Notes: generated from the sequence alone by a model not told the origin. Numbered from the stretch's first letter, positions 1 to 61,596 are shown. The stretch: 64,000 nt of DNA from a virus (IMGVR_UViG_3300033562_000573:5287-69286), one strand, 5' to 3'. Numbers and translations are program-made.

Positions 1-163
1 CAATGTCAATTCAGTATGTATGCCCCAGCAATGGGGCTACTCATAGTGTAACGTTGAATGGTCCAATTATACGTAATGGGGAATATTTTGAAGATTGGTC
101 ATATCAGTACATTGAATTTAAATGCAAATTCTGTGGAAATAATCATAAATTTGAGTTATAAAA

Positions 164-994
164 ATGACACCCATTTCAATTGATCGACATATAATAATAT
201 CAGGTAATTATCTGACATTATGTATATTAAAAAATCAATTTTTTGATAATATAAAGAATTTTATGTTATCAAAATTTGATATCGAAGAATATAAAAATTC
301 TGTGATTGTAGTTGGTGGAAGTGATTTTTCATGTATTCAATATTGCAGAGAACAGCACACTAATAAAAAAATAATTGCATACAACTGGGAACAACTAGTT
401 GATTGTAATCAGTGGATAAATGTATCTCATGTAATATCAGAAATGAAAAAGGCTGATGAGATATGGGATTACGACCATTTGAATAAATTATATTTGAGTA
501 AATTTTATAATGTTTCTGTAAGTAAAGTGATGCCATTTGAGTATTATTCAAATATAGAGATGTTATCGAATAAGAAAAATCCAACTATTGATGTATTAGT
601 GTATGGATCTCTAAATGAAAGACGAGCACGGATACTGGCAAATATTCAGCTACAACTATATGATTCAGTATCTATAGTCATAGTTGCTGGAATGAGTAGA
701 GAGTCTACTTATAAGTATATAGAAAATAGCAAGATCGTTTTGAATTTACATGGATTTGAACCTTGGAGTAGACAAGAACAAGAACGCATTGGGTTTTTAT
801 TGGGTAATAAGAAGTGTGTAATTTCCGAAATATCACAAGAAAACTATTTCACTGATGCTATATTAGAATCACGATTGGATGATTTGATATATAATATTAA
901 TTATGCGTTGCATGATGATAATTGGAGACAGATTGGACTCAATGGATATGAAAAGTTCAAGAATGGCTCGTGTCAGAAAACCACAAATTACTAA
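164..994 (+). CDS. Glycosyltransferase-like protein (GT-B/CgeB-like C-terminal domain); true start may be 263
   Basis: SKIVLNLHG...EQERIGFLLGNKKCVISE resembles the C-terminal sugar-nucleotide-binding domain of GT-B proteins. Confidence 0.5.
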   Translation: MTPISIDRHIIISGNYLTLCILKNQFFDNIKNFMLSKFDIEEYKNSVIVVGGSDFSCIQYCREQHTNKKIIAYNWEQLVDCNQWINVSHVISEMKKADEIWDYDHLNKLYLSKFYNVSVSKVMPFEYYSNIEMLSNKKNPTIDVLVYGSLNERRARILANIQLQLYDSVSIVIVAGMSRESTYKYIENSKIVLNLHGFEPWSRQEQERIGFLLGNKKCVISEISQENYFTDAILESRLDDLIYNINYALHDDNWRQIGLNGYEKFKNGSCQKTTNY

Positions 995-1018
995 AAAGAA
1001 AAAAAAGTGAAAAAAGTT

Positions 1019-1047
1019 TTGACAAGATAACGAAAATAATCTATATT
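1019..1047 (+). promoter_or_regulatory. sigma70-type promoter for the leader and tRNA array
   Basis: TTGACA-N17-TATATT; the same architecture recurs before many genes in the left half. Confidence 0.8.
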
Positions 1048-1089
1048 AGTTTTATAAGAGAAAAGAAAAACCATCTCACAAGGAATAAA

Positions 1090-1185
1090 ATGCAAAAGTC
1101 AATCGTCATAACAACCATTACAGTAGCGATCATTGATCGTACTGCTACAGGTATGGGCGCAGGAGATATTGCATTGCGAGGTTAA
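1090..1185 (+). CDS. Putative attenuator leader peptide MQKSIVITTITVAIIDRTATGMGAGDIALRG (31 aa)
   Basis: AAGGA RBS; Ile/Thr-rich like thrL (TGMGAG vs TGNGAG); immediately followed by a terminator. Confidence 0.7.
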   Translation: MQKSIVITTITVAIIDRTATGMGAGDIALRG

Positions 1186-1206
1186 ATTCTATATAAAGAT
1201 AGAATG

Positions 1207-1240
1207 AAGCCTCGCAGAAAACTGCGAGGTTTTTCTTTTT
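1207..1240 (+). terminator. Intrinsic terminator (attenuator) before the first tRNA
   Basis: AAGCCTCGCAG-AAAA-CTGCGAGGTT followed by a U tract. Confidence 0.85.
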
Positions 1241-1250
1241 GGTAGATTAT

Positions 1251-1324
1251 GGATGTGTAGCTCGAATTGGTAGAGCATCTGATTTGCATTCAGAGGGTTA
1301 AGGGTTCGAATCCCTTCACGTCCA
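1251..1324 (+). tRNA. tRNA-Ala(UGC)
   Basis: Cloverleaf; TCTGA-TTTGCAT-TCAGA; GTTCGAAT T loop. Confidence 0.9.
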
Positions 1325-1326
1325 CT

Positions 1327-1400
1327 AGCGGAGTGATAGCAGATGGTAGCTTGCCAGGCTCATAACCTGGAGGTCGTGGGTTCGAGTCCCACCTCCGCAA
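1327..1400 (+). tRNA. tRNA-fMet(CAU), initiator type
   Basis: CCAGG-CTCATAA-CCTGG; 1:72 mismatch; resembles bacterial initiator tRNA. Confidence 0.85.
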
Positions 1401-1458
1401 TAACAATAACGCTTGCCGTTATTTGATGATTGAAAGTTTGGATTGAATAGTTTTTTAT

Positions 1459-1531
1459 GCGGTTGTATCTCAGTTGGTAGAGAGTCTGCTTGCCATGCAG
1501 AATGTCGTGGGTTCGAACCCCATCAACCGCT
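1459..1531 (+). tRNA. tRNA-Gly(GCC)
   Basis: TCTGC-TTGCCAT-GCAGA; cloverleaf. Confidence 0.9.
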
Positions 1532-1658
1532 TAAAGATATGATTATTGATAGTGAGTGTATGACACTGAAGAGTTGGGTGTATCCCGTGTATTCGGTTCT
1601 TGGTAGTTCGAAAGAATCAGGCAAAGCACCACAAAACTACCAATCATATCTTTTTTAT

Positions 1659-1927
1659 GCATCAGTAGCTCGAATTGGTAGAGCTACGGGAAATCTTATG
1701 ATGTCTTCAAACCCGTGTGTGAATAAATAGTAGTCTAATGGAAGTGCATAATGAACAATAAAGGAAAAATTAATTGAAATGGATTCTGATAACGACATTA
1801 TAAGATCAAAGAACCGTGAGCATCTGGAAGGGGTGACAGGTCGGAATTATAGTAGGTTAATGAGTAGCTTTTTTTAGTAGTTATGTAAATAAATTAGATG
1901 AGGTGGGTTCGACTCCCCTATGGTGCT
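1659..1927 (+). ncRNA. tRNA-like RNA with ~200-nt internal insert
   Basis: 5' GCATCAG + D arm (TAGCTCGAATTGGTAGAGC); 3' GGGTTCGACTCCC T arm + TGGTGC that pairs with the 5' end. Confidence 0.45.
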
Positions 1928-2039
1928 TGAATGTGTTCTGTCTGAGACGAGCGTGAATAAGGTCAGTTAACCTCGGTATGAGGGATATGTGCAAACATAT
2001 TTGACATCTCAGTGACAAGTAGGGAAAGACCTACATTAT

Positions 2040-2112
2040 GGGGTTATAGCTCAGTTGGTAGAGCATCTGACTTGCACTCAGAAGGTCGAGAGTTCGAATC
2101 TCTCTGGCTCCA
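2040..2112 (+). tRNA. tRNA-Ala(UGC)
   Basis: TCTGA-CTTGCAC-TCAGA; G3:U70 pair. Confidence 0.92.
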
Positions 2113-2122
2113 TTAAATTAAT

Positions 2123-2197
2123 GCGTCATTGGTGTTTAACGGTTCAGCATGAGACTCTTCCAAAGTCAAGGTGAGGGTTCGAATCCCTCATGACGCT
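2123..2197 (+). tRNA. tRNA-Gly(UCC)
   Basis: GACT-CTTCCAA-AGTC; acceptor stem pairs; T loop TTCGAAT. Confidence 0.85.
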
Positions 2198-2353
2198 TAC
2201 CACAAACTAGCAGTGTGCTACTGCCTATCATGCCGAAAGTATGATAGATACAACAAGTGATAAGGTCACTTGACAATAACAACAGCAAAAACGGACAGCG
2301 GTTGCAAACGCTAAGATCAAGTCCCTTGATGATGTTACTTTGGTCATCAATAT

Positions 2354-2424
2354 GCATCTATCGTATAAAGGTAATACCAGTGATTTCCAATCATTAGCTC
2401 TCAGTTCGATTCTGGGTAGATGCT
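2354..2424 (+). tRNA. tRNA-Gly(UCC)
   Basis: AGTGA-TTTCCAA-TCATT; GCATCTA/TAGATGC acceptor stem. Confidence 0.8.
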
Positions 2425-2487
2425 TTACTATAAAAATAATGAACTTTTATATAAACTATATAAACAGTTTATTAGAGGTTCGAATAT

Positions 2488-3171
2488 ATGAAATTTGATG
2501 AAAAGAAACATGCTCGTGAATTGAGAACACTTGGGTTTTCATTAAAAGAAATATCAAAAAAACTCAATGTTGCTAAAAGTAGTGTTAGTGTATGGGTCAG
2601 AGATATTAAGTTAGATGAAAATGCAATAAATAGAATTCAATTGAATAGAGAAAAATCGTATAAAATAAGAAATGAAGATCACTATAAAAAATTTACTGAT
2701 AAAAGAATGCAATGGAGAAAAGATGCATTATCTCTAATTACTAATAGAGATGCATTAGATGTTGCATTATTATATTGGTCAGAAGGGTATAAAAAGAATA
2801 ATAAAAATACAGTGGCTTTTACTAATAGTGATCCATCTATGATATTTATTTTTATGAATAAATTAGTTAATGGATACAATGTATCTAAATCTGATATAAA
2901 AATATCATTGAATGTGTATACCGATTTACATACACAAGATGAAATTAAATTATATTGGATGGATAAACTCAATATTTCCGATAATTCAATTTATGTAAAT
3001 AGTATAAATAATATATCGAAATATAGCAAAAATAAACGTTGTGGATTACTTGAATGGGGTACATGTAGATTAATGGTACACTCAACACAAGTATTACAAA
3101 AAATATATGGTGTACTTGATGCATATACAGAATTAAATGGTATGAAATCAGATTGCACTGGATATAACTAA
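2488..3171 (+). CDS. HTH + LAGLIDADG-like putative homing endonuclease
   Basis: N-terminal HTH (GFSLKEISKKLNVAKSSVSVW); LYWSEG...VAFTNSD; TATAAAC upstream; inserted between tRNAs. Confidence 0.55.
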   Translation: MKFDEKKHARELRTLGFSLKEISKKLNVAKSSVSVWVRDIKLDENAINRIQLNREKSYKIRNEDHYKKFTDKRMQWRKDALSLITNRDALDVALLYWSEGYKKNNKNTVAFTNSDPSMIFIFMNKLVNGYNVSKSDIKISLNVYTDLHTQDEIKLYWMDKLNISDNSIYVNSINNISKYSKNKRCGLLEWGTCRLMVHSTQVLQKIYGVLDAYTELNGMKSDCTGYN

Positions 3172-3193
3172 TATTGGTTATATTGTTAATTAT

Positions 3194-3265
3194 GCCCATG
3201 TAGCTCAGTGGTAGAGCTGCACCTTTGTAACGTGCGGGTCGGGGGTTCAAATCCCTTCGTGGGCT
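3194..3265 (+). tRNA. tRNA-Thr(UGU)
   Basis: TTTGTAA loop; cloverleaf. Confidence 0.85.
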
Positions 3266-3272
3266 TAAAAAC

Positions 3273-3345
3273 GCTACTATAGCATAACTGGTGATGCAGC
3301 TGACTTGTAATCAGCAGATTCTCGGTTCGAGTCCGAGTGGTAGCT
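3273..3345 (+). tRNA. tRNA-Thr(UGU)
   Basis: GCTGA-CTTGTAA-TCAGC. Confidence 0.9.
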
Positions 3346-3367
3346 TAACTAATTTTTACTATATCAT

Positions 3368-3454
3368 AGATGGATACTCGAATTGGTCTTCAGAGGGCAG
3401 TCTGATAAGCTGTTTGGTGCAAGCCTTATGTGGGTTCAAGTCCCACTCCATCTA
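3368..3454 (+). tRNA. tRNA-Ile(GAU) with long variable arm (copy 1)
   Basis: GCAGT-CTGATAA-GCTGT, ~15-nt variable region, GTGGG-TTCAAGT-CCCAC. Confidence 0.75.
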
Positions 3455-3563
3455 CTAAATACACAACCAAAGTAATTGGGTTAAATTCCCTTATCCGTAG
3501 CATAAATTCGTAGAAACGGATTGGTAGTATTGCTAACTCGTTGGCTCTGTGTATTTTAATTAT

Positions 3564-3636
3564 GTCCGTGTAGCTTAACTGGATAAGCCTCTCGCTACGA
3601 ACGAGAAGAGTATAGGTTCGACTCCTATCACGGATT
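3564..3636 (+). tRNA. tRNA-Arg(ACG)
   Basis: TCTCG-CTACGAA-CGAGA. Confidence 0.9.
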
Positions 3637-3638
3637 CT

Positions 3639-3787
3639 AGCAGAATAGAGGAATTATTGTACATATAAGTATATAATACTAGTAAATTTATATTTAGATG
3701 GACAACAACCAGACTCGCCCTCATCATAGAGAGGGAATAGATATCGACGGATATCGTTTGTAGGTGAAAGTCCTACTTCTGCAACCA
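3639..3787 (+). ncRNA. Atypical tRNA-Met(CAU)-like RNA with D-loop insert, long variable arm and encoded CCA
   Basis: AGCAGAA/TTCTGCA acceptor + ACCA; CCCTC-ATCATAGA-GAGGG; GTAGG-TGAAAGT-CCTAC. Confidence 0.5.
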
Positions 3788-3792
3788 TTTAC

Positions 3793-3865
3793 GCCCATTT
3801 AATTCAGTGGATAGAAAGCATGGCTTCGAACTATGTAGTCGGGGGTTCGAATCCCTCAGTGGGTA
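3793..3865 (+). tRNA. tRNA-Arg(UCG)
   Basis: CATGG-CTTCGAA-CTATG. Confidence 0.88.
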
Positions 3866-3885
3866 TAACAAAAATAGGGTTAATT

Positions 3886-4185
3886 ATGAAAAAGACACAT
3901 ATAAAATTTAATATTGTTGGCATAACACCCGAAGGCGTTCATGTAGTGGACAATGTTTTTAGAGTATTTGATACGGACGGTCTTCCATTGGATGAATTGT
4001 TTTATCAATGTAAAGAACATAATTTAATGCCTTCATGGACTAATTTTTATGAAGATGCAAGACTTCAAGGATGGAGTCATAAAACTATTATGAATAGATT
4101 AGAAGTTTCTATTCGTGATGCTTATGGTAAAGAATTTTCTGATGGTGTACTCGAAAGATTACAATTATTTTCAGAATTAACATAA
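3886..4185 (+). CDS. Small protein with an alanyl-tRNA-synthetase-like DTxGxPLD motif
   Basis: VFRVFDTDGLPLDEL resembles AlaRS AFKLYDTYGFPLDL; start reassigned to M23 of the listed ORF. Confidence 0.5.
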   Translation: MKKTHIKFNIVGITPEGVHVVDNVFRVFDTDGLPLDELFYQCKEHNLMPSWTNFYEDARLQGWSHKTIMNRLEVSIRDAYGKEFSDGVLERLQLFSELT

Positions 4186-4192
4186 AGAATTT

Positions 4193-4266
4193 GCTGTTGT
4201 AGCATAATTGGTTAATGCGCTGTCTTGGTATGACAGATAGTGGTGGTTCGATCCCACTCAATAGCT
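4193..4266 (+). tRNA. tRNA-Thr(GGU)
   Basis: CTGTC-TTGGTAT-GACAG. Confidence 0.88.
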
Positions 4267-4274
4267 TAAAATTT

Positions 4275-4346
4275 CGGCATGTAGCTCAATGGTGGAGCAG
4301 TGGTTTTACATACCATATGATGGGGGTTCAAGTCCCTCCATGCCGA
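4275..4346 (+). tRNA. tRNA-Val(UAC)
   Basis: GTGGT-TTTACAT-ACCAT; CGGCATG/CATGCCG. Confidence 0.88.
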
Positions 4347-4399
4347 TTATTCGAACTTGTTAATTATATAAACTAAGTATATAGATAAGGTGTTCGAAA

Positions 4400-4972
4400 A
4401 TGAAAATTAAATGCAAATTCTGCGAATGTGAATTTATTGGAGATAATACACGAAAATTTTGTAGTTCTGTGTGTTCTGCTAAATTTAATAATAAAGGTAT
4501 ATGCAGAAATAAAAAGAAAAAATTAGATAACTGTATTAATTGTGGTGGTAAATTAAATAAATCATCACAGAAAAAATTTTGTTCATTAAGTTGTTCAAAT
4601 GAATATAAGTGGTTACATAAAATGATTCCTTTAATTGAATCAGGTAAATGTACACAACAATTAACAGTTAAGAAATATTTGTTTATGACTCGTGGGGAGA
4701 AATGTGAATTATGTGGTCAATTACCAACATGGAATGGAAAGCCGTTAACATTACAAATCGATCATATAGATGGTAACTCTGATAACAATGAATTGAATAA
4801 TGTTAGAATATTATGCCCACATTGTCATAGTCAAACTGATACCTTTGTATCACGCAATATAAAAAATACTAATAGAAATAGTTATTTGCGTAGATATAAG
4901 AAAAAAGTAATGTACATGGAAAATATAATTAAAAAAAAAGATACAATATGCCGTATAGACAATGCGAATTAA
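4400..4972 (+). CDS. HNH homing endonuclease with zinc-binding N-terminus
   Basis: CELCG...LQIDHIDGNSDNNELNNVRILCPHCHSQT. Confidence 0.85.
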   Translation: MKIKCKFCECEFIGDNTRKFCSSVCSAKFNNKGICRNKKKKLDNCINCGGKLNKSSQKKFCSLSCSNEYKWLHKMIPLIESGKCTQQLTVKKYLFMTRGEKCELCGQLPTWNGKPLTLQIDHIDGNSDNNELNNVRILCPHCHSQTDTFVSRNIKNTNRNSYLRRYKKKVMYMENIIKKKDTICRIDNAN

Positions 4973-5175
4973 AGCGAAGTGAAAATGGTAATTCTCTTAC
5001 TACTGTAAGTTATATTCCATCTAAGTTAGCAAAAGTAGGTCGTAAAATTGAAGTTCAAGAGAATGAAATCTGGACTGCATGGACAGTTGATAAAATAAGT
5101 GATGTAGAAATTTCAGATGAAGTTGCCAAAAAGACACAGAAGATGTGGCATGGTGGCTGGAATAATAACATTTAA
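4948..5175 (+). CDS. Hypothetical protein
   Basis: ORF coupled to its neighbours; no recognised motif. Confidence 0.6.
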   Translation: MPYRQCELKRSENGNSLTTVSYIPSKLAKVGRKIEVQENEIWTAWTVDKISDVEISDEVAKKTQKMWHGGWNNNI

Positions 5176-5369
5176 TGGAATTAGACATGACATTAATGTT
5201 GAAAGTTATTATATCGTTATTTGGTGTTGTTTTTGTACTTGGGATTTATAATAAAATTCAAGAACGAAGAGAATATAAAAAAATGATGGATCAGATTCAG
5301 AAGGATAAAGAAAAAAATAGAAGACCATCTTCTAGTTATACTTTATCTTCTGAAGATGGTTATAAGTAA
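5175..5369 (+). CDS. Small single-pass membrane protein
   Basis: Hydrophobic N-terminus, basic tail. Confidence 0.55.
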   Translation: MELDMTLMLKVIISLFGVVFVLGIYNKIQERREYKKMMDQIQKDKEKNRRPSSSYTLSSEDGYK

Positions 5370-5374
5370 GATAT

Positions 5375-5461
5375 AGATGGATACTCGAATTGGTTCTCAG
5401 AGGGCAGTCTGATAAGCTGTTTGGCACAATCCTTATGTGGGTTCAAGTCCCACTCCATCTA
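5375..5461 (+). tRNA. tRNA-Ile(GAU) with long variable arm (copy 2)
   Basis: Near-identical to 3368-3454. Confidence 0.75.
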
Positions 5462-5467
5462 CGATAA

Positions 5468-5541
5468 GGGCATGTTTCCTAGTGGTTAAGGAGCCTGACT
5501 GTCTATCAGGATTTTCAGGGGTTCGAATCCCCTCATGCTCG
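5468..5541 (+). tRNA. tRNA-Asp(GUC)
   Basis: CCTGA-CTGTCTA-TCAGG. Confidence 0.9.
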
Positions 5542-5649
5542 TATTTTTTATCACATTATATTGATGTGATAATTATGGGTGGTTCATTCCCCATTAGATG
5601 TTTTTAGTTCATTCCCTATTTATTATAAACTATTATTTTAGGTGATTAC

Positions 5650-6414
5650 ATGATAAATAAGTTGAATGAATATAATAAAATATGCCCACGATGTGGTGGT
5701 GAATTTACTGTTAAGTGTAGAGAATCTGAAATACATAATCCTAAAAAAGTGCGTGTATATTGCAGTGATGTATGTAGTAGAGCTAGAATTCTAAGTGAGT
5801 GTACTAAACAGAAAATTGCATCATCGTTAAGAATAATAAGACCTTCTATAATATGTGTATGTTGTGGTGTATCATTTGTTCCCAAACGAAAGTCACAAGT
5901 TATGTGTTCATTAAAATGTGTTGGTATTGTAAATGGTAAAAAAATGACGGATGGTTCTGTTATTGATAAAAAGAATAACCCACAAAAATATTCAGATTTA
6001 CAAAAAACAATGTATGCAAATGGTATACAAAAAGTTGGTGGTGGTAAAACAAAATGGTATACCTATAATAATATTCGTGTACAGGGTACATATGAATTAA
6101 GATGTTGTATAATTCTTGATAAAATGAAATCACTAAATTGCATATATAACTGGGAATACACAAAAGACAGAATACCATACATAGGAATTGATGGAAATTT
6201 ACATAACTATTTACTAGATTTTAAAGTTTATTATTCGCCAACTGAATTCTATTATATAGAAGTTAAAGGATATGTAAAAGATGTCGATTTTCTTAAATGG
6301 AAAGCAGTTGATGATAATGGATTTGTTATGGAGATATGGTATAAAAATAATTTAGAATCACATGAAACTGAATATTTTATTCATAGTAATGAATATCTTC
6401 GATATACAAAATAG
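5650..6414 (+). CDS. Zinc-ribbon + TnsA-like PD-(D/E)XK putative homing endonuclease
   Basis: CxxC/CSxxC repeats; NYLLDFKV...YIEVKG. Confidence 0.7.
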   Translation: MINKLNEYNKICPRCGGEFTVKCRESEIHNPKKVRVYCSDVCSRARILSECTKQKIASSLRIIRPSIICVCCGVSFVPKRKSQVMCSLKCVGIVNGKKMTDGSVIDKKNNPQKYSDLQKTMYANGIQKVGGGKTKWYTYNNIRVQGTYELRCCIILDKMKSLNCIYNWEYTKDRIPYIGIDGNLHNYLLDFKVYYSPTEFYYIEVKGYVKDVDFLKWKAVDDNGFVMEIWYKNNLESHETEYFIHSNEYLRYTK

Positions 6415-6430
6415 TAAATGTAGTCTTTTT

Positions 6431-6505
6431 ATCGGATTAGCTCAGTTGGCTTAGAGCAGGTGCTTCATACGCACAAGGTCACTGGTTCAAGTCCAGTATC
6501 CGGTA
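6431..6505 (+). tRNA. tRNA-Met or Ile2 (CAU)
   Basis: GTGC-TTCATAC-GCAC; cloverleaf; identity not resolvable by eye. Confidence 0.8.
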
Positions 6506-6517
6506 CTATTTTTTCAT

Positions 6518-6592
6518 GCCCAGATAACACAATTGGTAGTGTGCTCGTTTCGTAAGCGAGAGGCTGGCTGGGTTCGAGTCCCCCTTTGGGCT
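6518..6592 (+). tRNA. tRNA-Thr(CGU)
   Basis: CTCGT-TTCGTAA-GCGAG. Confidence 0.8.
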
Positions 6593-6651
6593 TTTTTTAT
6601 TCAATCCAAACTGATTTTAATCTATATTTATAATAAATATTATAGGTTAAT

Positions 6652-7056
6652 ATGTTTACATTAATAGACAATCTTAAAGATCCAGTTGTACATTCAGATA
6701 TTGACGATAAATATCTAGCATCATTTTTTATTCAAATTCCGCTAGACTCATTTGTATTGCAATTTTACGATTGGCAAACAGGCGATGTAATTGAGTATGA
6801 TGAATCAATTAAACAATATGGAATTGAAAGAACTAGACGTAGATTTAGATGCTTATTTACCAATATCACTTCGAATACAGATGAATTAGATTTATTTGCT
6901 TTAATAGTTAAATCTGTAAATATTTGGTACAACGAGAATATTGCACAAATTGAATTACATCATTTAAGTGATTGGGATTATTCTATGTTTTTTAAATATT
7001 TTAAAATTACTAGAATATATAGAGAACCTGACTTAATATTATCATATAAAAGTTAA
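6652..7056 (+). CDS. Hypothetical protein
   Basis: 134-aa ORF followed by a terminator. Confidence 0.6.
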   Translation: MFTLIDNLKDPVVHSDIDDKYLASFFIQIPLDSFVLQFYDWQTGDVIEYDESIKQYGIERTRRRFRCLFTNITSNTDELDLFALIVKSVNIWYNENIAQIELHHLSDWDYSMFFKYFKITRIYREPDLILSYKS

Positions 7057-7068
7057 TAATACATAAAT

Positions 7069-7097
7069 AAAAAGCCATCGTTAGATGGCTTTTTTTA
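7069..7097 (+). terminator. Intrinsic terminator
   Basis: AAAAAGCCATC-GTTA-GATGGCTTTTTTT. Confidence 0.8.
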
Positions 7098-7163
7098 TTT
7101 GTATTCTAGTATAAATTGTGTTATTAAATAGTATATTTTGTGTATAGTTATAGGATAACATAA

Positions 7164-8420
7164 ATGAAATTTAGTATAATAACACCGACACATAATTTTA
7201 GATATATTAAAGAATTATATAATTCCATCATTGAACAAACTCATACCGATTGGGAATGGATATTATATGTGAATGGAAAAGCTATTCATGATAAATTACC
7301 TTCAGTTATACTTGAAGATGAACGAGTGAAAGTATACAAAGACATCTCAAAAAATAATAAAGTTGGCTATGTAAAAAATAAAGCATTCCATTTAGGCACT
7401 GGTGATATCCTAGTTGAAATGGATCATGATGATTTATTGGTTGAAACTTGCTTAGAAAAATTAAATAAAGTATATTCAGAAAATCCAGATGTAGGATTCG
7501 TGTATTCTGATGATGCAAAAATGCAAACAAATGCAGAATTTATACCATTTGGTTCTAGATTTGGATGGGAACCACCATATACATTTGAATATAAAGGCGT
7601 TAACTATCCAGTAATGGGTGGATTTGATGCTGATTCTGGGTCCATGTCATTTATATGGTATCAGCCAAATCATGTGAGAACATGGCGAAAAGAAATATAC
7701 ACTGATATAGGTGGACATGATATTAATTTTGATATTTTGGATGATCAAGATATTATATGTCGAACATATTTAAACACAAAATTTTATTTTATAAAAGAGC
7801 CATTATACATATATCGTGTAGACGGTAATAATACGTGTTACAAACCTGAAATAAATCAGAAAATACAAAACCTCACAGTGGAATTATTCCATAAGTATGC
7901 ATATCAGTTAGCAGAACGTGACGCTGATTTAAAAAATCTATTGAAAATTGATATAGGCGGTGGTATAAATCCAAGACCTGGTTATAAAACTCTTGATATG
8001 TATGACGCTGATTATATTTGTGATCTAAATGATGGTATTCCATTACCTGATAATTCAGTAGGTGTGATAAATGCAAGTCATGTTATTGAACATTTACATG
8101 ATAAACAAAAAACAATGGAAGAGATTTTCAGAGTATTGGTCGATGGAGGATGGGCATTCATCGAAGTTCCATCAACCGATGGAAGAGGTGCGTGGATGGA
8201 CCCAACTCATGTATCATACTGGAATCAGAATTCATTTTATTATTATACACGACAAGATCAAGCACAATATATCAGAAATGATAAAATAAAATTTCAAGAA
8301 TTTAGACTTGAAACTGCATTTCCATCTCAATGGTGGAAAGATAACAATATTCCAGTTGTATATGCATGGTTGCGTGTAATTAAAAGCAATAACCGCAGAC
8401 CAGGTACAAAATTCATTTAA
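7164..8420 (+). CDS. GT2 glycosyltransferase fused to a class I SAM-dependent methyltransferase domain
   Basis: FSIITPT...ILVEMDHDD (DxD); C-terminal DIGGG...ASHVIEHL...RVLVDGG. Confidence 0.8.
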   Translation: MKFSIITPTHNFRYIKELYNSIIEQTHTDWEWILYVNGKAIHDKLPSVILEDERVKVYKDISKNNKVGYVKNKAFHLGTGDILVEMDHDDLLVETCLEKLNKVYSENPDVGFVYSDDAKMQTNAEFIPFGSRFGWEPPYTFEYKGVNYPVMGGFDADSGSMSFIWYQPNHVRTWRKEIYTDIGGHDINFDILDDQDIICRTYLNTKFYFIKEPLYIYRVDGNNTCYKPEINQKIQNLTVELFHKYAYQLAERDADLKNLLKIDIGGGINPRPGYKTLDMYDADYICDLNDGIPLPDNSVGVINASHVIEHLHDKQKTMEEIFRVLVDGGWAFIEVPSTDGRGAWMDPTHVSYWNQNSFYYYTRQDQAQYIRNDKIKFQEFRLETAFPSQWWKDNNIPVVYAWLRVIKSNNRRPGTKFI

Positions 8421-20713: not shown

Positions 20714-21538
20714 ATGTATATGAAAAATAGTAAAGGTCAATTTATCAGACAGTATAAAATATTGAATGAATGTTTATTTAAAACTATAACACCCGAAAGT
20801 GCATGGTTATTAGGAATGTTATCATCAGATGGTAACATTCAAAACAATGTAATACGAATTACACAAAGTGACGATTGTGGTAAAATCAGAATAAATAAAA
20901 TACGAGATATATTTAAATGTGAAAATCCAATTTCTATATATAATCCAATAAAAGGTGCAACGGTTTATACGTTAGCGTTATCATCCAGTATTATAGTTAA
21001 TGATTTAAAATCATATAATGTACTTCCAAATAAAACACTATCATACGAATACCCAATCAATTTGCCTGATAATATGATTCCATTTTTTATTGAAGGTTAT
21101 ATAGAAGGTGATGGAACTATTGGGATATATAAATTTAATGATACTATTAAACGATTAACTGCATTGGTTGTTGGTACTAAATCATTTATAGAAACTATAA
21201 ATACTAAATGTATTATATCTGGTAGAGTTAGAAAAATACCAAATCAAAAAATTTATGAATTGAGATGGACAGGTAAGAAAGCCATTGATATATGTAATTG
21301 GATATACGCAAATCCAATATTTAAACAAAGCAAAAAATATAAAAAATACATTGAATATATTGATACAGTGCATAATATGGACATTAGATATGAAAAATAT
21401 GATAAATTAAAAGAAAAAGCCAAAAAACTCCTAATTGACGGATATTCCGTTAAGGATATAGCAATCCAATTGAATATGCATTTTCAACTTTTATATAAAT
21501 GGAAGAAATTAGGACTATTTGATAAAATACAACCTTGA
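20714..21538 (+). CDS. LAGLIDADG homing endonuclease
   Basis: WLLGMLSSDG and FIEGYIEGDG. Confidence 0.85.
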   Translation: MYMKNSKGQFIRQYKILNECLFKTITPESAWLLGMLSSDGNIQNNVIRITQSDDCGKIRINKIRDIFKCENPISIYNPIKGATVYTLALSSSIIVNDLKSYNVLPNKTLSYEYPINLPDNMIPFFIEGYIEGDGTIGIYKFNDTIKRLTALVVGTKSFIETINTKCIISGRVRKIPNQKIYELRWTGKKAIDICNWIYANPIFKQSKKYKKYIEYIDTVHNMDIRYEKYDKLKEKAKKLLIDGYSVKDIAIQLNMHFQLLYKWKKLGLFDKIQP

Positions 21539-21569
21539 CAAATATGACAGAAGTTTCTATATTATCAAT

Positions 21570-22721
21570 ATGAATACTTTAAACCTAGAAAACTTCTTAC
21601 AACGAGCTAATCTAACCTGCCAACGACAGGATGGATTGATTCTTTTCGACTACAATAAGACAGTCTCATTCACGTTTGACTGGGATTTAATCACCATCAA
21701 TGGTCGTGGAATTGTATTTGAAGAATCAACTGGAAGGATTGTAGCCAGACCATATAAAAAATTTTGGAATGTCGAGGAATTATTTTTTGATAATAACTTG
21801 ACTGATCGTGCTAAGTTACTACCAGTAGAGTACCAACCTAACTTTAAGGGTCGATTCCGTGTGCTTGAAAAAGCTGATGGAAGTTGTGCTGTTGTATATT
21901 TCTACAATGGTGAATGGCATGTAAATACTCGTGGTTCGTTCAAGTCAGATCAAGCGATTTGGGCAAAGGCTTGGATGGATTCGCATATCAGAACCGATTT
22001 GATGAATGTAAAGCATACTTACTTATTCGAAATCATCTATCCTGATAACAGAATCGTAGTTGATTACGGTAACAAGGAATCCCTTGTATTAACTGGAATC
22101 ATCGATACTGAATCGGGTGAAGAATTTGATGTTGATTACTTACAGGCTGAATCTGAAAAGATTGGCTGTGAAATGGTTAAAGTATTTGTGTTCGAAAAGT
22201 TCGAAGATTTGTTCATGACTCGTGATCTTTTGACCGTGAACGAAGAAGGATTTGTTATTACTTTTGATAATGGCTACAAGTGCAAACTGAAAGGTGCCGC
22301 ATACTGTGCTGTTCATAAAAAGATGAATAACCTTACGCCACTTGCTTTTTGGAATGCATTTGATGTTGACGCATTCAAGATGCCAGAGTCATTCTTATCT
22401 GAATTGCCCGAAGAATTTAGAGAAAGTGTGGATGAATTGACTGAAGTAACTGAACGAATGCATAACGAAAGTTATGATCGTTTGAAGGCGTTGGCTTCAA
22501 CTATTCCACAGTTTGAAAGCGATGTGGCTGGTAGAAAGAAACGGTTTGACTACATCACCTTACACATCGAACCTCAAGATGTTGGGTTTGTATTGTCTAT
22601 CTTGAATGGAAATGTAAGAAAGACAAAGGAAAGCATTCATCGTATGGTTCGTCCATTCAAAAACTCATACGATGGTGTTACACTTAACAATAGATTGCAG
22701 AGAATTTTTAGTGAAAGCTGA
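21570..22721 (+). CDS. T4 Rnl1-like RNA ligase
   Basis: RGIVF...VARPYKKFWN, LEKADGS, TRGSF, FEII, EGFV, KLKG; promoter TTGACA-N17-TATATT at 21535. Confidence 0.85.
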   Translation: MNTLNLENFLQRANLTCQRQDGLILFDYNKTVSFTFDWDLITINGRGIVFEESTGRIVARPYKKFWNVEELFFDNNLTDRAKLLPVEYQPNFKGRFRVLEKADGSCAVVYFYNGEWHVNTRGSFKSDQAIWAKAWMDSHIRTDLMNVKHTYLFEIIYPDNRIVVDYGNKESLVLTGIIDTESGEEFDVDYLQAESEKIGCEMVKVFVFEKFEDLFMTRDLLTVNEEGFVITFDNGYKCKLKGAAYCAVHKKMNNLTPLAFWNAFDVDAFKMPESFLSELPEEFRESVDELTEVTERMHNESYDRLKALASTIPQFESDVAGRKKRFDYITLHIEPQDVGFVLSILNGNVRKTKESIHRMVRPFKNSYDGVTLNNRLQRIFSES

Positions 22722-22900
22722 TTCTCTGCTTTCTTTTTGGTTTTTTATATGACAAAAGATGAAAAAGTTTCTATATTACTAGCAAATGGATGGTTAGAAT
22801 ATCATGGGAATACATGGTATAATAAAAAAGAATGGGCTGATGCAGGTTGAACCACATCCATTTGATAAATATCGCCAGAAGGCATTAGAGGAATCTAAAA

Positions 22901-24032
22901 ATGACTGAACAAGAAATTGACCAAAATTTAATTTTTTCATTCGTGCGTGGATCACATGCATACGGATTGAATAATGCTGATAGTGATGAAGATATTGGTT
23001 CCGTAGCACTACCTAATCTTGCTGTTATTACTGGATTTGATTCCTTTGAACAGAAAGATGACTATGTGGATGAAAAGGGTGAAAAGACCGATAAGGTTGT
23101 ATATAATATTATGAAGGCATTGGATTTGATTGAAAATAACAATCCAAACGCTTGACTTTTTGTATGCACCAGATCATTGCATTCGTATGTTACGTCCTGA
23201 ATGGGAAACCATCATGTCTGTGCGAGATCAGTTCCTTTGTAAGAAAGCAAAATGGGCATATCAAGGGTATGCGTTATCTCAATTGAGTAGAATTGAAACC
23301 CATCGTGGTTATCTATTGAATCCAATGAAGAAACCAACTCGTGAACAGTTCAAGTTACCATCTGAAAGTATTTTTCCAGCTAACCAATTGGCAGTTATTG
23401 CTCGGTTGGCAAGTGATTATATTGAAGAACCAAAAATGCAAGATAAATTCTATTCGGATATGTCTGCATTATTTGATCATGAAGGTGCAATTTTGTTTAA
23501 GAAGTATATCAATCGTGATATGACTCATTTTGCAATTGCAGATTTCAAACAGCGTCAGGATGCTTTCTTGCGTACCATTACTAGCGTATCTCAAAAATTC
23601 TTGAAAGATGAATTTCAAGATATTGCTAGACGAGAATTAAAATTCTTAGCGGCTGAAAAGCAATGGACTGATTATAAGCGTTGGGATAAAGAACGTAATC
23701 CAAAGCGTAAGTTGTTGGAACAAAAATGCGGATATGATGCAAAACATGCTGGACATCTTGTTAGACTACTTAAAGTTGGTCTTGAAATTATGGAAGGTAA
23801 AGGCGTTCAGGTTGATAGAACTAATATTGACCGAGACGAATTGTATGAAATCCGTATGGGTAATGTAAAATTTGATATTGTAATGCAGAAAGCAAAGGAT
23901 CTAAACGATGCTATCGAAAATGCATACAAAACAAATAATATTTTACCACTAACGCAAGATCCAAAATTGACACTTGAATTGAAAAAGAATATTGTCAATC
24001 TTATCTTAGCTAAAGGTGATTGGGTTGTATGA
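22901..24032 (+). pseudogene. Pol-beta-superfamily nucleotidyltransferase, split by an apparent frameshift near 23150
   Basis: GSHAYGLNNADSDED in frame 1; NNPN|LDFLY continues in another frame to GYDAKHAGHLVRLL. Confidence 0.7.
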
Positions 24033-61305: not shown

Positions 61306-61371
61306 AGTATTCTAGGGAAATGAGTTGGTAACAAGTCGCTTGCGTCATGGAAACAAATCAGAGTACCTTAT

Positions 61372-61444
61372 GAGATTGTAGCTCAGTTGGTAGAGCAGTT
61401 GACTTTTAATCAACGGGTCGAGCGTTCAAATCGCTCCAGTCTTA
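61372..61444 (+). tRNA. tRNA-Lys(UUU)
   Basis: GTTGA-CTTTTAA-TCAAC; GAGCG-TTCAAAT-CGCTC. Confidence 0.92.
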
Positions 61445-61596
61445 TTCTCCCAATGCTCCCTAGAGAGGTTTAGTGATTTACGCTCTAGGGAGCATTGACA
61501 CGATTCTATTTAATCAACGGGTCGAGCGTTCAAATCGATCCAGTCTCATTCTCCCAATGCTCCCTAGAGAGGTTTAGTGATTTACTCTCTAGGGAG
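61405..61596 (+). repeat. Direct repeat (~88 bp, period 104) of the tRNA-Lys 3' half plus downstream hairpin
   Basis: 61405-61492 vs 61509-61596, three mismatches seen. Confidence 0.85.

Follow-up and report, generated by a model that had tools for sequence, protein, structure and literature searches.

The 64,000-nucleotide stretch of viral DNA analysed here (IMGVR_UViG_3300033562_000573:5287-69286, referred to below as the window) comes from an uncultured giant phage and is part of a 69,286-base IMG/VR virus record with an estimated completeness of 19%. We describe a short leader region near its start, in which a promoter, a small open reading frame (ORF) and an intrinsic terminator precede an array of 17 tRNA genes (1019-6592), and we discuss the view that this region is an attenuator controlling the tRNA genes behind it. 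The G+C content, about 32%, is that of an AT-rich phage, and the record carries genes typical of large phages, such as those for ribonucleotide reductase, NAD salvage and thymidylate synthase, together with many homing endonucleases.

Organization of the leader region and the tRNA array

All features of the leader region and of the array lie on the plus strand. A glycosyltransferase-like gene ends at 994, directly before the leader region, and an A-rich tract read in the sequence at 991-1018 may act as an UP element; comparable tracts are present upstream of the promoters of the other attenuators described below. The tract is followed by a sigma-70-type promoter (1019-1047) composed of TTGACA (1019-1024), a 17-nt spacer and TATATT (1042-1047), which has 11 of 12 matches and ties as the best promoter-like site in the first 9 kb; transcription is predicted to start at about 1054. 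A Shine-Dalgarno sequence, AAGGA (1080-1084), is found 5 nt upstream of the ATG of the leader ORF (1090-1185), which has 31 codons from the ATG at 1090 to the stop codon at 1183-1185; a gene of 31 amino acids has also been called in a relative, L049.

The last leader codons and the first base of the stop codon together make up a 9-mer (1175-1183) that is the same sequence as 1223-1231 and the complement of 1208-1216. This 9-mer is the 5' arm of a predicted antiterminator, and it is paired in the minimum-free-energy (MFE) fold. The antiterminator hairpin spans 1175-1216, and its stem encloses a 7-bp inner hairpin seen in the fold (1186-1205). The intrinsic terminator (1206-1240) consists of a 12-bp stem (1206-1233) with a GAAA-type loop and a T tract extending to 1240, with a folding energy of about -18 kcal/mol. 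Its 5' arm (1207-1216) is the strand common to the terminator and the antiterminator, and the latter is the stronger of the two competing structures. From promoter to terminator, each element of this kind spans about 220 nt. Another hairpin of 6 bp lies within the ORF (1126-1140); it is paired and invariant in six of the six copies known to us, and hence offers no covariation, and it may be a pause site for RNA polymerase. A conserved AUGC/GCAU stem, also without covariation, closes the leader and may limit re-initiation.

Only 10 nt separate the terminator from the first gene of the array, a tRNA-Ala starting at 1251. The array (1251-6592) encodes tRNAs for Ala, Met, Gly, Thr, Ile, Arg, Val and Asp only, and homing-endonuclease-like and small ORFs are interspersed among its 17 genes. 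No further terminator-like site was found on the same strand between 1240 and 6576. A sequence-only reading of the window had proposed the promoter, the 31-residue leader, the terminator and the tRNAs in this order, and our re-reading of the sequence found each of them at the coordinates that it gave. What it had said of the 9-mer (identical to the terminator 3' arm at 1223-1231 and complementary to the 5' arm), of the residue counts and synonymous codons of the leader, and of the eight amino-acid families of the array, which we checked over the 17 tRNAs, was exact.

Codon content and folding of the leader

The central observation is the agreement between the residues of the leader and the tRNAs that follow it. 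The leader contains six Ile, five Thr, four Ala and four Gly, and two each of Val, Asp, Arg and Met, so that 27 of its 31 residues are among the eight amino acids carried by the array's tRNAs. These eight account for 43.3% of the residues in the long ORFs of the phage, and the binomial probability of the observed number is 5.6e-7; the match to the array, which the sequence-only reading had pointed out, is thus beyond coincidence. Among 255 small ORFs of the genome, the leader ORF is the sole one with more than 67% of its residues in the set of eight, and no 31-residue protein window among 14,251 contained 27 residues of the set. When strict wobble rules were applied at the codon level, 24 of the 30 codons after the start were cognate to tRNAs of the array.

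In comparison with dinucleotide shuffles, the RNA of this region has a fold that is better by 6 standard deviations. The MFE fold pairs 1176-1183 with 1208-1215 around the inner hairpin, and thus represents the antiterminator state. In 2000 shuffles of the segment before the terminator, none paired equally well with the terminator 5' arm.

Conservation and covariation among homologous copies

We collected six distinct copies of the leader (the window, L049, L053, L069, L055 and L059); copies were located through homologues of the upstream protein, and pattern scans gave two more, of which L069 came from a metagenome scan. The flanking protein is 53-83% identical across the comparable copies (L049, L053 and L055). 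All six copies retain the promoter hexamers, the ORF, the competing arm at the stop codon, the inner hairpin and the terminator. The hexamers and spacing of the 1019-1047 promoter are also found in the leaders of L049, L053, L055, L059 and L069 and before other tRNA blocks of G001, a larger relative described in the next section. The AAGGA sequence is retained in L049 and L055, and a weaker site of the GAGG/GAGA type is present in L053 and L069.

Pairing is maintained in both alternative structures. Across the six copies, the terminator is paired in 97% of the alignment cells, compared with 31-49% when the partners are slid, and the antiterminator and inner hairpin are paired in 87%, where partners slid by 1-3 columns give 25-49% overall. 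In L055 and L059 the shared arm carries a U to C change, and its partners in the antiterminator and in the terminator have both changed from A to G (columns 90, 124 and 139). The inner hairpin of L069 has an unrelated sequence in which pairing is kept. Judged from the alignment, such compensatory events are those expected of a two-state switch.

The peptide itself has changed extensively. The window and L055 differ at 17 of 28 aligned codons, and 15 residues are replaced; 13 of these replacements swap one member of the array set for another, and the other two convert Lys and Ser into Val and Thr. All 15 replaced positions in L055 therefore fall within the set of eight amino acids, for which the chance is 0.433^15, or about 4e-6. 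Only about 40% of the leader peptide is conserved between the two, and set membership is fully kept. From this comparison of sequences, selection appears to act on which tRNAs are called for, and not on the peptide.

The homologous site is not always occupied. In L050-L052, L054, L057 and L058, which are relatives by the upstream gene, the leader or the array is missing at this site. At L054 (1620-1871), whose upstream protein is 71% identical, a promoter and a gene for a 67-residue membrane protein are found instead, and no leader or array is present within this short contig. For the glycosyltransferase-methyltransferase gene downstream, 47 loci were found, and the array adjoins it in none of them. 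Searches of 50,697 phage records by blastn with the class-C and Ser/Leu leaders gave chance-level matches only, and the first 8 kb of the window match cultured phages through the tRNAs only. One match in a genome collection, to a GC-rich Planctomycete metagenome-assembled genome, was discarded as a chance match; there are no tRNAs there, and it is uninformative on the host. In L053 (2425-2545), the attenuator is followed, as first gene, by a tRNA-Ala(UGC)-like sequence that was not called by ARAGORN, and this sequence is preceded by a small hairpin-forming segment common to L055 and L059.

The same design before other tRNA blocks

The design is not restricted to one kind of array; besides the window type, we have seen it before six further tRNA blocks in relatives. 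The most informative genome is G001, a relative of 164,708 bases with 57 tRNAs for all 20 amino acids, sorted into isotype blocks. It holds seven attenuators of the same design, each matched to its own block. Blocks of this genome are found at L072 (17424-19170, minus strand), L065 (1848-4254, minus strand) and L066 (736-14343, plus strand), and most stand behind a leader of their own. For example, a leader with Asn4-Glu-Arg(AGA)-Glu precedes three tRNA-Asn and a tRNA-Arg(UCU) in L055 and G001, and the next attenuator in series, whose leader has a YEREEER motif, is followed by five tRNA-Glu (UUC and CUC). A leader located on the other strand, rich in Ser, Leu, His, Cys and Trp and with 15 consecutive codons that are all cognate, stands before Leu, Ser, Trp, Cys and His tRNAs; 10 of the 11 anticodons of this block have a cognate codon in the leader. 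G001 has two such serial pairs, each in one unit, namely Asn followed by Glu, and Tyr/Phe followed by Lys. The contig of the window itself (G000) also contains a Glu attenuator, 4.5 kb upstream of the window (618-740), in which a 17-codon leader, a competing arm across the stop codon and a terminator are followed by tRNA-Glu; its homologue in L055 lies at 3969-4080.

For the fifth array of G001, which contains Tyr, Phe, Lys and Gln tRNAs, matching leaders were predicted before the region was read. Three were found, all equipped with a terminator and a competing arm: the leader upstream of the Tyr and Phe tRNAs is rich in Tyr, Lys and Phe, that of the Lys tRNAs contains four Lys and four Gln codons, and that of the Gln tRNAs has an uninterrupted run of six Gln codons. 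A zinc-ribbon-like small ORF with four Cys in CxxC pairs (L072 17690-17760, minus strand) lies between the Gln6 attenuator and the three tRNA-Gln.

We scored eight leaders against eight arrays in an 8 x 8 matrix with strict wobble rules. The diagonal was the column maximum for all eight arrays (Fisher combined P = 6e-17), and the true assignment of leaders to arrays was the best of 40,320 permutations. The composition of the leader thus tracks the content of the tRNA block in relatives, which is the behaviour that the sequence-only reading had proposed to look for. An unrelated phage array (L033) directly follows a protein gene and has no leader.

Geometry and predicted switch states

We examined nine attenuators of seven classes, assuming that the ribosome footprint extends 12 nt downstream of the A site. 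In all nine, the competing arm starts between -15 and +2 nt relative to the stop codon, and thus lies under a terminating ribosome. When the footprint of a ribosome on the stop codon was masked, the terminator formed in nine of nine cases (9-12 bp). When a ribosome stalled at the matching codons was masked and the terminator 3' arm had not yet been made, the predicted fold was the antiterminator, with -14 to -25 kcal/mol; the terminator hairpins have -14 to -19 kcal/mol. In the window, 18 of the 24 matching codons are far enough upstream to leave the arm free. The distance from the stop codon to the terminator stem is 21 to 34 nt. Shuffled sequences matched the pairing of the arm with the terminator 5' strand in 0-30 of 2000 trials for each of the nine attenuators (combined P about 1e-15). 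The earlier suggestion that the two structures be compared by folding is answered by these calculations, in which the antiterminator is the MFE state and the terminator forms once the region under the stop-codon ribosome is masked.

A model of the switch

On these grounds, we consider that the leader region is very probably a ribosome-mediated, leader-peptide transcription attenuator that controls the phage tRNA operon. The sequence-only reading had seen in it a ribosome-mediated attenuator whose codons mirror the tRNAs under its control, and this view is supported by conservation, covariation, codon turnover, the successful prediction, the permutations and the geometry. We infer the translation of the leader, the direction of the switch and its physiological trigger. 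According to the model, the host RNA polymerase would initiate at the promoter and a ribosome would load on the 31-codon leader. If its Ile, Thr, Ala, Gly, Val, Asp, Arg and Met codons are decoded quickly, the ribosome would reach the stop codon and cover 1175-1183; the terminator (1206-1233) would then form, and transcription would stop before the first tRNA gene. Slow decoding of any sensed codon would leave the ribosome stalled upstream, so that 1175-1183 would pair with 1208-1216, the terminator would be blocked, and the polymerase would continue into the 17 tRNA genes. Since the tRNAs of the array read the leader's own codons, their accumulation should speed up decoding and close the switch again, and the circuit would be a negative-feedback gauge of tRNA supply. 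The relatives would possess one such gauge for most of their tRNA blocks. Candidate triggers include a shortage of host tRNAs for the AT-rich codons of the phage, a loss of tRNAs during infection and a defence of the host by anticodon nucleases; the sequence-only reading had suggested starvation or host anticodon nucleases.

At a broader level, the attenuators taken together might form a distributed homeostat for individual isoacceptors that also serves as a counter-defence sensor: host tRNAs missing through codon mismatch, host shut-off or anticodon nucleases would be detected by ribosome speed, the matching replacement block would be switched on, and it would be switched off after the supply has been restored. 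This wider proposal we hold tentatively, as possible yet short of probable.

Several findings weigh against the attenuator model or limit its reach. No upstream protector (1:2) segment that pairs with the antiterminator arm appeared in the folds; the untranslated RNA therefore folds as the antiterminator, for which read-through is predicted, unlike in trp or his, and in this modelling a global collapse of translation should also open the arrays. The compensatory events are few and represent about three independent lineages for the window leader. The Glu leader contains codons without a cognate tRNA in its own block (Arg CGN, Ile, Ala, Thr and Val), the Lys leader taken alone reaches P = 0.06, and the Asn leader has no clear Shine-Dalgarno sequence. 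A pair of tRNA-Pro genes in G001 was considered as an attenuated block and was not counted, having a promoter and a short ORF with two Pro codons and no terminator. In the window itself, tRNA-Lys(UUU) (61371-61445) has a TTGACA-17-TATATT promoter without a leader or a terminator, and is ungated. Finally, the phage has no cultured relative, and its RNA ligase finds its best match in cultured phages at 31% identity.

Alternative explanations

The alternative that deserves most attention keeps the same switch and changes the signal, so that the attenuators would report amino-acid starvation or the general state of host translation, and the arrays would be part of a translational-stress response. 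Attenuators such as those of trp, his and thr respond to charged tRNA, so that starvation would stall the ribosome too, and the folds without a ribosome predict read-through, so that the arrays would be opened by a global loss of translation as well. A tRNA array of Anabaena is indeed induced by general translational stress (PMC8421152). We consider this alternative unlikely, because extra tRNA does not relieve amino-acid starvation, because block-specific leaders matched to isoacceptor codons (AAA/AAG, CAA/CAG and GAA/GAG) would be needless for a general sensor, and because an Rnl1-like RNA ligase and a nucleotidyltransferase encoded in the window point to tRNA damage and repair. A reversed polarity, in which active translation of the leader would disturb the terminator and cause read-through and stalling would cause termination, is very unlikely in our estimation. 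Ribosomes close behind the polymerase are known to suppress terminators elsewhere, for example at pyrBI; here, the reach of a terminating ribosome is about 12 nt and the stop codon lies 21 to 34 nt before the stem, so that the stem would be left untouched, and in nine of nine cases such a ribosome covers the antiterminator arm instead.

The two other explanations dispense with attenuation by a translating ribosome. If the short ORF encoded a functional micro-protein with its own terminator, with the tRNAs expressed independently and the match in composition incidental, its good promoter, ribosome-binding site and terminator and its conservation in six contigs would be readily understood. Against such a protein, the window and L055 share only about 40% of the peptide sequence and yet adhere fully to the set, and each of the seven leaders, which are unrelated in composition (Gln6, Asn4, Ser/Leu-rich and others), fits its own block. 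The last codons are moreover constrained as an RNA arm that competes with the terminator, and the 10-nt gap between the terminator and the first tRNA holds no second promoter of comparable quality; we therefore regard the micro-protein as extremely improbable. We lend equally little credence to an untranslated structured RNA with an accidental ORF, whether an element for processing or stability, a small RNA or a T-box-like switch. The alternative hairpins do exist regardless of translation of the ORF, and terminated attenuator RNAs act in trans in other bacteria (PMC6614838). Against this, only tRNAs reach the Rfam thresholds in the first 8 kb of the window and in 60 kb of G001, six Gln codons, four Asn codons or 15 Ser/Leu/His/Cys/Trp codons before exactly matching tRNAs are not expected by accident, and nine attenuators agree in where the stop codon lies relative to the arm.

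Comparison with known systems

The attenuator model has its closest mechanistic counterpart in the multivalent attenuators of enterobacteria, in which the thr leader senses Thr and Ile and the ilvGMEDA leader senses Ile, Val and Leu; trp, his, leu, phe and pheST are further examples. The phage element resembles them in having a promoter-proximal short ORF rich in regulatory codons, in the mutual exclusivity of terminator and antiterminator, in the decisive position of the ribosome and in sensing more than one amino acid, and the thr leader resembles that of the window also in composition. The differences are that the phage element controls tRNA genes instead of enzymes or synthetases, that it would respond simultaneously to as many as eight amino acids and about a dozen isoacceptors, and that it is phage-encoded and repeated as block-specific gauges, sometimes two in series per unit. 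In addition, no protector (1:2) hairpin was found in the phage element, and thus the default of the untranslated transcript should be read-through. The scores with the Rfam models Thr_leader (RF00506; 23.5 bits, gathering threshold 55) and His_leader (RF00514; 20 bits, gathering threshold 49) are below the thresholds; having an analogous architecture, the element would work like those families without belonging to them by sequence.

T-box riboswitches also choose between a terminator and an antiterminator in order to report a specific tRNA. They bind uncharged tRNA through a specifier codon and the T-box sequence without translation and control synthetase or amino-acid genes, whereas the phage element has a predicted translated ORF. 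The T-box covariance model gave no match in positions 1-8000 of the window (E up to 10), nor at the gathering threshold in 60 kb of G001.

Among published regulated accessory tRNA arrays, the trn operon of Anabaena sp. PCC 7120 comes closest; it is a long array that is off by default and is induced by translational stress (PMC8421152). Its regulation takes place at the promoter, where the repressor TrcR binds direct repeats (PMC8421152, PMC10272220). It resembles the phage arrays in that an accessory tRNA array is turned on when translation is impaired and in that tRNA repair functions are associated with it (PMC8421152). It differs in that the two papers mention no leader peptide, terminator or attenuation (PMC8421152, PMC10272220), in that its response is not isoacceptor-specific, and in being bacterial and not viral.

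The tRNA clusters of phages such as T4 and T5 share with the window array the interspersed homing endonucleases and the RNA ligase genes nearby, whereas no leader-peptide control was found for them in our literature search. In GAP32, a cultured jumbo phage with similar tRNAs, the tRNA genes are scattered singly among small genes, and the organization is not comparable. A Phe-rich leader before the tRNA-Phe genes pheU and pheV of E. coli was considered as a candidate precedent; no such ORF or attenuator was found at the pheV locus of MG1655, and it was dropped. In our full-text literature search, we came across no description of tRNA genes, phage or bacterial, under leader-peptide control; the sequence-only reading had stated that it knew of no phage tRNA-array attenuator of this kind; as far as could be found, trp-operon-style attenuation of tRNA genes is unpublished.

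Further observations on the window and on public runs

The Rnl1-like RNA ligase (phrog_562) and the nucleotidyltransferase (phrog_388) are encoded at 21519-24032, 15 kb from the array. They are a possible module for tRNA repair or maturation, which would fit the investment of this phage in tRNA supply. The 3' half of the tRNA-Lys(UUU) gene is repeated about 60 nt downstream (about 61500-61555); the two copies are separated by a segment with an inverted repeat.

All public runs in which relatives occur consist of assembled contigs, which cannot show transcript ends or levels. One of them, X5, is labelled RNA-seq and was rated as probably DNA, so that nothing on expression can be concluded from it; its high-depth contigs include an L053-like leader, and in one of them the sequence continues across the terminator into tRNA-Ala. 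A contig of the same run joins 1655 to 1930 and skips a 274-nt insert of a split tRNA-like gene, and another X5 contig contains this insert; the junction represents either a spliced form or an insert-free strain.

Significance

These elements bear on the questions of why tRNA genes are present in phages and of when they are used. Phage tRNAs have been proposed to provide codon compensation, to replace degraded host tRNAs and to allow escape from anticodon nucleases. The elements are compact, and they are potential natural sensors of individual tRNA pools that should be testable without culture of the phage. If the attenuators work as their architecture implies, the expression of phage tRNAs would be driven by demand and specific to isoacceptors, the phage would monitor the speed of decoding directly, and the leaders would reveal the codons that the phage anticipates as limiting. 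The scope of leader-peptide attenuation, a control known from amino-acid biosynthesis, would then widen to RNA genes and to viruses.

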